A stretch of 64,000 bases of DNA from Bacteroidia bacterium (GCA_021740845.1 JAIOYZ010000005.1:3693-67692), one strand, 5' to 3'. Positions 1,670 to 1,968 are shown, numbered from the stretch's first letter. The notes: generated from the sequence alone by a model not told the origin. A program made the numbers and translations.

Positions 1670-1775
1670 GAATGGCTGTTGGCTATTAGCTTCTGGCATC
1701 TGGCTACTGGCTACTGGCTTTTAGCTATTTCTTTGAGTGAAGTTGTCTACTTATTTATTGGGATAAAAAAGGACA

Positions 1776-1930
1776 GTAAGTAAGTATGTAAGTATGTAAG
1801 TATGTAAGTAAGTAAGTATGTAAGTAAGTATGTAAGTAAGTATGTAAGTAAGTATGTAAGTAAGTATGTAAGTAAGTATGTAAGTAAGTAAGTAAGTAAG
1901 TAAGTAAGTAAGTAAGTAAAGAAAGAAAGA
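1776..1930. repeat. microsatellite (GTAAGTAT)n then (GTAA)n then (GAAA)3
   Basis: Direct reading shows about 10 GTAAGTAT units, then about 9 GTAA units, then GAAA x3. It is preceded at 1678-1735 by an imperfect GGCTACT-like repeat. It lies in the intergenic region upstream of the thioredoxin gene. Confidence 0.9.
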
Positions 1931-1968
1931 GTAGTAGGATTAATAAAAAAAAATAAAAGTAAAAATAT

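Follow-up and report, generated by a model that had tools for sequence, protein, structure and literature searches.

Does a long tetranucleotide repeat lying ahead of a thioredoxin gene act on the expression of the genes behind it, or has it simply grown there? This question is raised by a 299-nt spacer, between the stop codon of a small membrane protein gene (DUF6132, ending at 1669) and the ATG of trxA (1969), in a 64,000-nt stretch of DNA from a Bacteroidia bacterium (hereafter, the window). A sequence-only reading had located the repeat in the trxA promoter region, where changes in unit number would alter spacing and thereby cause phase- or rheostat-like variation of a sulfide-stress and redox operon.

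Anatomy of the tetranucleotide tract

The tract is a compound tetranucleotide microsatellite on the plus strand, made up of 36 in-register units (1776-1919, 144 bases, according to our own tokenisation), of which 26 are GTAA and 10 are GTAT. Tandem Repeats Finder (TRF) delimits it almost identically, as a period-4 array of 36.2 copies with 87% matches (1775-1919), and its score of 227 belongs to what is by far the longest array in the window. With A standing for GTAA and T for GTAT, the units follow in the order AAT AT AT AAAT (AAT)x5 A x10, which corresponds to GTAAGTAAGTAT, (GTAAGTAT)2, GTAAGTAAGTAAGTAT, (GTAAGTAAGTAT)5, and (GTAA)10; the pure blocks are, thus, (GTAAGTAAGTAT)5 and (GTAA)10. 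It follows from this order that the main higher-order unit is the 12-mer GTAAGTAAGTAT. The compound microsatellite proposed by the sequence-only reading is, therefore, real, but not its octameric unit, since GTAAGTAT occurs only about two to three times, at the 5' end of the tract. The (GAAA)3 that had been appended to it needs a similar adjustment: directly after the last GTAA comes A(GAAA)2GA, with two full GAAA copies, and three copies are only obtained when the motif is read as AAAG, giving an (AAAG)3 tract that adjoins the GTAA run (1918-1929, plus strand).

Such an array is far from what chance would produce. When the window was searched for GTAAGTAAGTAA with at most one mismatch, 33 matches were found, versus 0.58 expected from dinucleotide shuffles, and 32 of these 33 fall within the tract. 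The tract is devoid of C, consists of 47% A, and presents a TAA in every plus-strand frame, every 12 nt. Folded as single-stranded DNA, it has a minimum free energy of 0, and the 331-nt spacer region, folded as RNA, is no more stable than its shuffled versions (z = +0.75). An Rfam scan of positions 1400-3600, with E-values up to 10, only returned chance matches to microRNAs and snoRNAs, and no known RNA element.

Length alleles among close relatives

Other alleles were recovered by exact-protein look-ups and a metagenome scan, yielding five informative sequences; with the window itself, only three full alleles were obtained. Contigs L164/L165, from an NCBI metagenome-assembled genome (MAG, GCA_021739685.1) in which the exact DUF6132 product is also called, are 100% identical to the window and end inside the tract, at 1860, after reproducing its irregular first 86 nt. 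L001/L003, from the Logan assemblies of SRR12088351 and SRR12088350, are also 100% identical, and start at 1891, in the (GTAA)n block. Contig breaks in short-read MAGs of this population can be traced to the tract. Two contigs cross the spacer with shorter arrays: L084 (JGI metagenome contig Ga0172380_10074988), belonging to the same species and 95-98% identical, carries (GTAA)8 and no GTAT, and L002 (Logan DRR783846), 93-95% identical, carries only (GTAA)2. Further look-ups with the persulfide dioxygenase, OsmC, rhodanese, and 65-aa TTG-start DUF6132 proteins returned only known contigs or nothing, and, hence, no new alleles.

The unique flanks of the tract differ by only a few substitutions among the 36-, 8-, and 2-unit alleles. 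Taking the window, L084, and L002 in this order, there are 8, 8, and 7 heptamer copies in the upstream part of the spacer, 2, 2, and 3 copies of GAAA (one extra unit in L002), and 9, 8, and 7 residues in the poly(A) that precedes trxA. The A-rich 49 nt before the trxA start codon are nearly unchanged in the three alleles, apart from this poly(A) length and a few substitutions. Repeat length is variable across strains, not invariant, and lengths of 36, 8, and 2 units among close relatives with near-identical flanks support the hypermutability that had been anticipated for the tract.

The same comparison settles the status of an antisense ORF (1755-2063, minus strand), which results from a stop-free (TTAC)n reading of the tract and would encode an LTYL/HTYL low-complexity peptide. 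This ORF had been signaled as spurious from the start. It does exist, but as the alleles differ in length by 112 and 136 nt, which are not multiples of three, its frame is not kept from one allele to the other, and it can be considered as non-conserved and spurious.

The rest of the spacer

The spacer begins, 4 nt past the DUF6132 stop codon, with an imperfect array of eight TGGCTAC-like heptamers (1673-1728, plus strand), which are, in order, TGGCTGT, TGGCTAT, TAGCTTC, TGGCATC, TGGCTAC, TGGCTAC, TGGCTTT, and TAGCTAT. It is detected both by TRF (1680-1719) and by motif counting (3 matches versus 0.12 expected), and corresponds to the GGCTACT-like repeat mentioned in the sequence-only reading. 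It is followed by a non-repetitive part of 47 nt (1729-1775), conserved only within the species group and lacking a -7 promoter box, and then by the tract. After (AAAG)3, an A-rich 40-nt segment, including a poly(A)9 (1945-1953, plus strand) within the A-rich translation-initiation region of trxA, leads into the start codon.

At the RNA level, an imperfect hairpin of about 62 nt is predicted for the heptamer array (1668-1733), with a free energy of -25.7 kcal/mol and a z-score of -2.85. A comparable hairpin is predicted in L084 (-27.9 kcal/mol, z = -2.63). It is lost in L002 (z = 0), and the different heptamer array found at the same position in a related species (L004) is unstructured. This hairpin was considered as a candidate intrinsic terminator. 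Its U-rich stretch is mostly located within the stem, the terminator scan did not flag it, and it is absent in L002, all of which argues against the predicted structure functioning as a terminator. It could attenuate read-through, which would then require a promoter for the downstream genes, and none was found. A small ORF in the heptamer region (1679-1783, 34 aa) was also considered and rejected as coding, as it is destroyed in L002 by a 7-nt deletion and stop codons.

The operon and its probable promoter

The tract is surrounded by genes of sulfur and redox metabolism, all on the plus strand. Upstream, the gene at 93-1466 encodes a protein with one MBL domain and two rhodanese domains (Pfam Lactamase_B and two Rhodanese matches). 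Its end-to-end match to PDB entries 3tp9 and 3r2u identifies it as a CstB-type persulfide dioxygenase-sulfurtransferase (PDO). It is followed by the DUF6132 gene (1481-1669, Pfam PF19628), which is syntenic in relatives. The first gene downstream of the tract is trxA (1969-2268), assigned by Pfam and, above cutoff, by NCBIfam TIGR01068, followed by a single-domain rhodanese gene (2273-2587, Pfam) and an OsmC-family gene (2590-3003, profile match). PDO is only the second gene of the series: just upstream of the window, L164/L165 (100% identical to window positions 1-1860) reveal an arsR-like first gene, coding for a 97-aa ArsR/SmtB-family regulator, of which the nearest named relatives are YgaV, PagR, HlyU, BigR, and SqrR-type proteins. 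The gene identities initially proposed, thus, hold at the family level, on the basis of domain searches and of the PDB matches, and the label of sulfide-stress and redox operon is reasonable as a family-level inference. Together, arsR-like, PDO, DUF6132, trxA, rhodanese, and osmC would form a six-gene operon, with osmC as its last gene; co-transcription is suggested by synteny and by the absence of promoter motifs between the genes.

The synteny was established with related species in which PDO is 66-83% identical, represented by MAGs of lake, river, and other environmental Bacteroidota. The order arsR-like, PDO, DUF6132, trxA, (rhodanese,) osmC recurs in seven of these species. Between DUF6132 and trxA, L005 and L016-L018 have about 20 nt, L006 and L007 have about 55-60 nt, and L004 has about 150 nt of sequence that is non-homologous to the spacer of the window. 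A gap of about 20 nt is too small to accommodate a promoter, and trxA is, therefore, ancestrally an internal gene of the operon.

In Flavobacterium johnsoniae promoters, TAHHTTTG constitutes the nearly invariant Bacteroidota -7 element (PMC6847099). A -7 box, TATATTTG or TACATTTG, is found 8-16 nt upstream of the arsR-like start codon in all seven species, and in each of them it is overlapped by a palindrome of the ATATGAA(C/T)ATAT type (L165 2540-2592, just upstream of the window, and orthologous positions of L004-L007, L012, and L016). The palindrome looks like the operator of an arsR-like repressor, and the two elements together likely constitute the autoregulated promoter/operator of the whole operon. 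No such elements were found near the tract. In the eight loci of other species that were examined, no TAHHTTTG occurs from the PDO stop to the trxA start; in the window, it is missing from the tract, from the 49 nt that separate it from the ATG, and from the 105 nt before it. Sigma-70-type and terminator scans of the plus strand of the spacer found nothing. An ArsR-type operator beside the tract was rejected, as no match to the palindrome of the arsR-like gene exists in 1-3600.

The sole exact -7 motif in the PDO-trxA region of the window, TAATTTTG, lies at 1488-1495, inside the first codons of DUF6132. It is kept as TACTTTTG in L084 (1478) and L002 (431), and absent in the other species. It could either have arisen by chance from the codons for K-L-I/L-L-K or act as an internal promoter; even in the latter case, the tract would still be transcribed. 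With a lone conserved promoter at the arsR-like gene, and no -7 box in or after the tract, the latter is most likely part of the trxA mRNA, as an intercistronic spacer, bearing in mind that alternative-sigma promoters would escape such motif scans.

Repeats in the operon of related species

Tandem repeats are not restricted to this spacer, nor to this species. L004 carries (GAACTAT)8 directly after the DUF6132 stop, and (TTAGCTG)4 between PDO and DUF6132; at the latter position, L005 carries (AGATGTGG)10. Between the arsR-like gene and PDO, a spacer that measures 115 nt in the species of the window, L006 contains about 300 bp of repeats (3582-3875), consisting of (GAATTGATAATGGA)5 followed by (AATTCAT/AACTCAT)35. 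Arrays of the AATTCAT type are also found at L007 8120-8174 and L005 1201-1232. In L002 and L004-L007, array sizes range from 30 to 300 bp. Period 7 is the commonest, with 11 of the 32 arrays of at least three copies in about 1 Mb of fetched related loci, a sample biased to one operon. As relatives display unrelated repeats in other spacers of this operon, slippage-driven spacer growth appears as a trait of the clade.

A dispersed heptamer family was also sought in the window and rejected for both TGGCTAC and TTGGTCT, with no tandems beyond the known sites: TGGCTAC tandems are only present at 1694-1721, and the single occurrence of TTGGTCT-like tandems does not exceed chance expectation. As heptamer units differ by locus and TGGCTAC is not dispersed, these arrays do not form a single-sequence family comparable to STRR or TAACTGA.

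Other repeats in the window

Several other repeats were observed in the window. A T/G-rich heptamer array, (TTTTGGG)3, is located right after the osmC stop (3003-3030); at this place, L002 carries (TTGGGTG)4.6 and (TTGGTCT)7.6 instead (L002 1810-1891). The TTGGTCT-like array of the window counts about five units and lies after a tRNA terminator (14819-14852). A second A-rich tetranucleotide repeat preceding a start codon is (TTTG)8.8, at 41510-41546, which reads (CAAA)n on the coding strand and sits in a 70-nt gap upstream of a minus-strand gene (40691-41485).

The near-palindromic 10-mer GGTTYRAACC (mostly GGTTTGAACC or GGTTCAAACC) is present 25 times in the window, versus 0.47 expected, for example, at 1469, 5346, 9431, 9491, 12230, 29791, 35188, 36928, 47451, and 57049. 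Many copies are intergenic, including one in the 14-nt PDO-DUF6132 gap. This 10-mer may serve as a site for a regulator, act as a signal for uptake or recombination, or form the core of a small repeat element. A dispersed intergenic family with the core ATTTCGKTTTGAACCGAGACAAGTT is found at 3070-3119, 5316-5462, 8039-8209, 9283-9371, and 12200-12249, with a copy in L002 as well; the shared sequence reaches 60-130 nt in some copies (families D2, D3, D5, and D7). This family may represent a miniature mobile element or a conserved regulatory module. An S41-peptidase-like gene (3531-5213) and its flanks are absent from L002 (compared over window positions 3117-5328), where window position 3116 is followed directly by position 5329 in the alignment, with copies of the dispersed GAACCGAGACAAG repeat at the junction; this suggests an insertion or deletion mediated by this repeat. 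Finally, a 92-nt direct repeat, 87% identical between its copies (6777-6868 and 7818-7909, family D4), adjoins the low-coordinate (3') ends of the minus-strand ORFs 7091-7795 and 8204-8629, and may mark duplicated sequence modules.

Comparison with known repeat systems

Long simple sequence repeats (LSSRs) are sporadically distributed across prokaryotes, heptamers being their most abundant class, and in some Bacteroidetes the intergenic regions are extended by heptamer repeats lacking in sister taxa (PMC4679880; PMC11868660). The tract resembles the LSSRs defined by Mrazek, Guo and Shah (2007; summarised in PMC4679880 and PMC11868660) by its non-coding position, its length beyond chance, its strain polymorphism, and its occurrence in a lineage that also seems rich in intergenic heptamer arrays. 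Its unit, which is not a multiple of three, is repeated entirely between the DUF6132 stop and the trxA start, and its length exceeds random expectation according to dinucleotide shuffles and the TRF score. It differs from typical LSSRs in being a compound tetranucleotide repeat with an 8- and 12-nt higher-order structure, and in being located inside an operon of a free-living, uncultured freshwater Bacteroidota. The tract, thus, belongs to a known kind of repeat, and nothing here demands a new mechanism.

The closest parallels in transcribed regions are the (AGAT)6-23 repeat in the 5' UTR of Moraxella catarrhalis uspA2, with which the tract shares a tetranucleotide unit and a strain-dependent copy number (PMC4679880), and a Haemophilus influenzae 5'-UTR repeat with an RNase III element, likewise a transcribed tract with variable copies before a start codon (PMC12721329). 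In contrast to these, the tract of the window is intercistronic, is associated with cytoplasmic redox and sulfur genes, and is Rfam-negative. The Neisseria meningitidis nadA (TAAA)n repeat (PMC2791445) is also an upstream A-rich tetranucleotide array, and the gene behind it is controlled by a ligand-responsive repressor. However, the nadA repeat is situated upstream of the core promoter and between repressor operators, whereas the tract of the window is neither followed by a core promoter nor flanked by operators. With the cyanobacterial STRR and the TAACTGA repeats of Beggiatoaceae, Cyanobacteria, and some Bacteroidetes (PMC4679880), the TGGCTAC-like array and those of the relatives share a tandem, intergenic arrangement, adjoining start or stop codons and lengthening spacers that are short in sister taxa. 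Here, the unit nevertheless changes by locus and by species, and TGGCTAC tandems are confined to one locus of the window.

Compared to contingency loci, the tract has the near-perfect, slippage-capable array (36 units) and the length difference between strains (36, 8, and 2 units), but not the position, as it lies neither in an ORF nor at a core promoter: it is intergenic, without a promoter in, before, or after it.

Origin of the tract and rival explanations

What is directly observed comprises the tract, its polymorphic length, the syntenic gene order, the distribution of promoter motifs, and the absence of predicted structure. On this basis, we consider it probable that the tract is a long simple sequence repeat, generated by slippage in a transcribed operon spacer and largely neutral. 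Its growth by replication slippage would be specific to the lineage, starting from a short (GTAA)2-(GAAA)3 seed such as L002 still carries. An A-to-T change would have created GTAT units, then copied in 8- and 12-nt steps, leaving the pure (GTAA)10 at the 3' end of the tract. Similar slippage would have built the different repeats, mostly heptamers, present in other spacers of this operon in sister species. The whole operon would be transcribed from the one conserved, operator-bearing promoter upstream of the arsR-like gene, and the tract would be carried in this transcript as an intercistronic (GUAA/GUAU)n RNA, instead of serving as a promoter-spacing element. Co-transcription, slippage, and neutrality are the steps that we infer.

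Why such an expansion would be tolerated can be understood from its composition. Bacteroidota ribosomes initiate without Shine-Dalgarno pairing, and an unstructured, A-rich upstream sequence favors initiation (PMC6847099). The tract would be tolerated because it is unstructured and A-rich, which suits Shine-Dalgarno-independent initiation, because it is C-free and, hence, a poor Rho loading site, and because it has stop codons in all frames. These properties explain tolerance of the expansion, and are no proof of its use. Neutrality is an assumption, as an untranslated spacer of 300 nt may well affect the dosage of trxA, rhodanese, and osmC.

The main rival to neutrality is a post-transcriptional rheostat, in which the copy number of the transcribed tract would tune trxA-rhodanese-osmC relative to arsR-PDO-DUF6132, whether through mRNA stability or processing, through spacing from the heptamer hairpin, or through standby or S1-type ribosome loading on the A-rich leader, slippage yielding heritable and reversible dosage variants. 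Located in an untranslated and probably transcribed region, the tract is separated from the trxA ATG by 49 nt, its copy number differs strongly between strains, and its zero predicted structure suits the dependence of Bacteroidota initiation on unstructured A-rich upstream sequence (PMC6847099), while expression-modulating tetranucleotide repeats in transcribed regions have precedents (uspA2, PMC4679880; PMC12721329). Yet initiation is known to be tuned by nucleotides no more than about 20 nt from the start codon, which are outside the tract and largely kept; sister species manage with repeat-free spacers of 20-60 nt; and the scattered, different repeats in the operon spacers of relatives look like mutational drift, not like a designed switch. 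The genes concerned are, moreover, cytoplasmic redox housekeeping genes, whereas contingency loci typically involve surface or restriction-modification genes. A rheostat is, thus, possible, although on balance unlikely. More doubtful still is its strongest form, a heritable and reversible dosage dial in which copy number would set trxA-rhodanese-osmC against the upstream PDO genes on one sulfide-responsive transcript, the operon spacers of this Shine-Dalgarno-less freshwater clade being built and continually resized by slippage-prone repeats.

The model proposed at the outset places the tract within a dedicated trxA promoter or immediately before it, where a change in unit number would alter spacing and produce phase variation, either on/off or graded, of the type seen with nadA (TAAA)n and hif (TA)n. 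It fits a long, hypermutable tract upstream of trxA, and the hairpin past DUF6132 could end the upstream transcript, so that trxA would need its own promoter. However, no U-tract follows this hairpin, the terminator scan did not report it, and L002 has lost it. The trxA promoter region itself was not borne out, with no TAHHTTTG in the tract, between it and the ATG, or in the preceding 105 nt, no sigma-70-like site, no arsR-type operator nearby, and orthologous gaps of about 20 nt that exclude a promoter there in relatives. Strain differences of 28-34 units (112-136 bp) are also far beyond what a spacing-sensitive promoter could tolerate while staying functional, and this model is, consequently, very unlikely. 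We regard as the least probable of all that the tract length, or the junction, is an artefact of an assembler mis-traversing a repeat loop. The 12-mer block (about 72 bp of perfect repeat) and the (GTAA)10 block are longer than common k-mer sizes, and two short-read assemblies break exactly at the tract, so that its copy number is not derivable from k-mers alone. Nevertheless, both tract edges, including the irregular 86 nt at the 5' side, are reproduced with 100% identity in a separate MAG assembly and in Logan contigs, and a shorter allele with matching flanks comes from a JGI metagenome that is unrelated. The locus itself is, therefore, genuine, and uncertainty is limited to the precise number of units.

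Significance

The tract is an unusually long and demonstrably polymorphic tetranucleotide repeat in an operon of environmental Bacteroidota. If it is neutral, it provides a strain-typing marker for an uncultured lake bacterium, and a clean example of how an operon spacer grows via microsatellite birth and decay. Contingency loci are known from the host-pathogen setting. The dosage dial, if true, would represent repeat-based bet-hedging on a cytoplasmic stress operon of a free-living bacterium. If copy number tunes trxA-rhodanese-osmC, the range of expression variation mediated by simple sequence repeats would come to include free-living Bacteroidota and intra-operon stoichiometry, and would be new in both respects.
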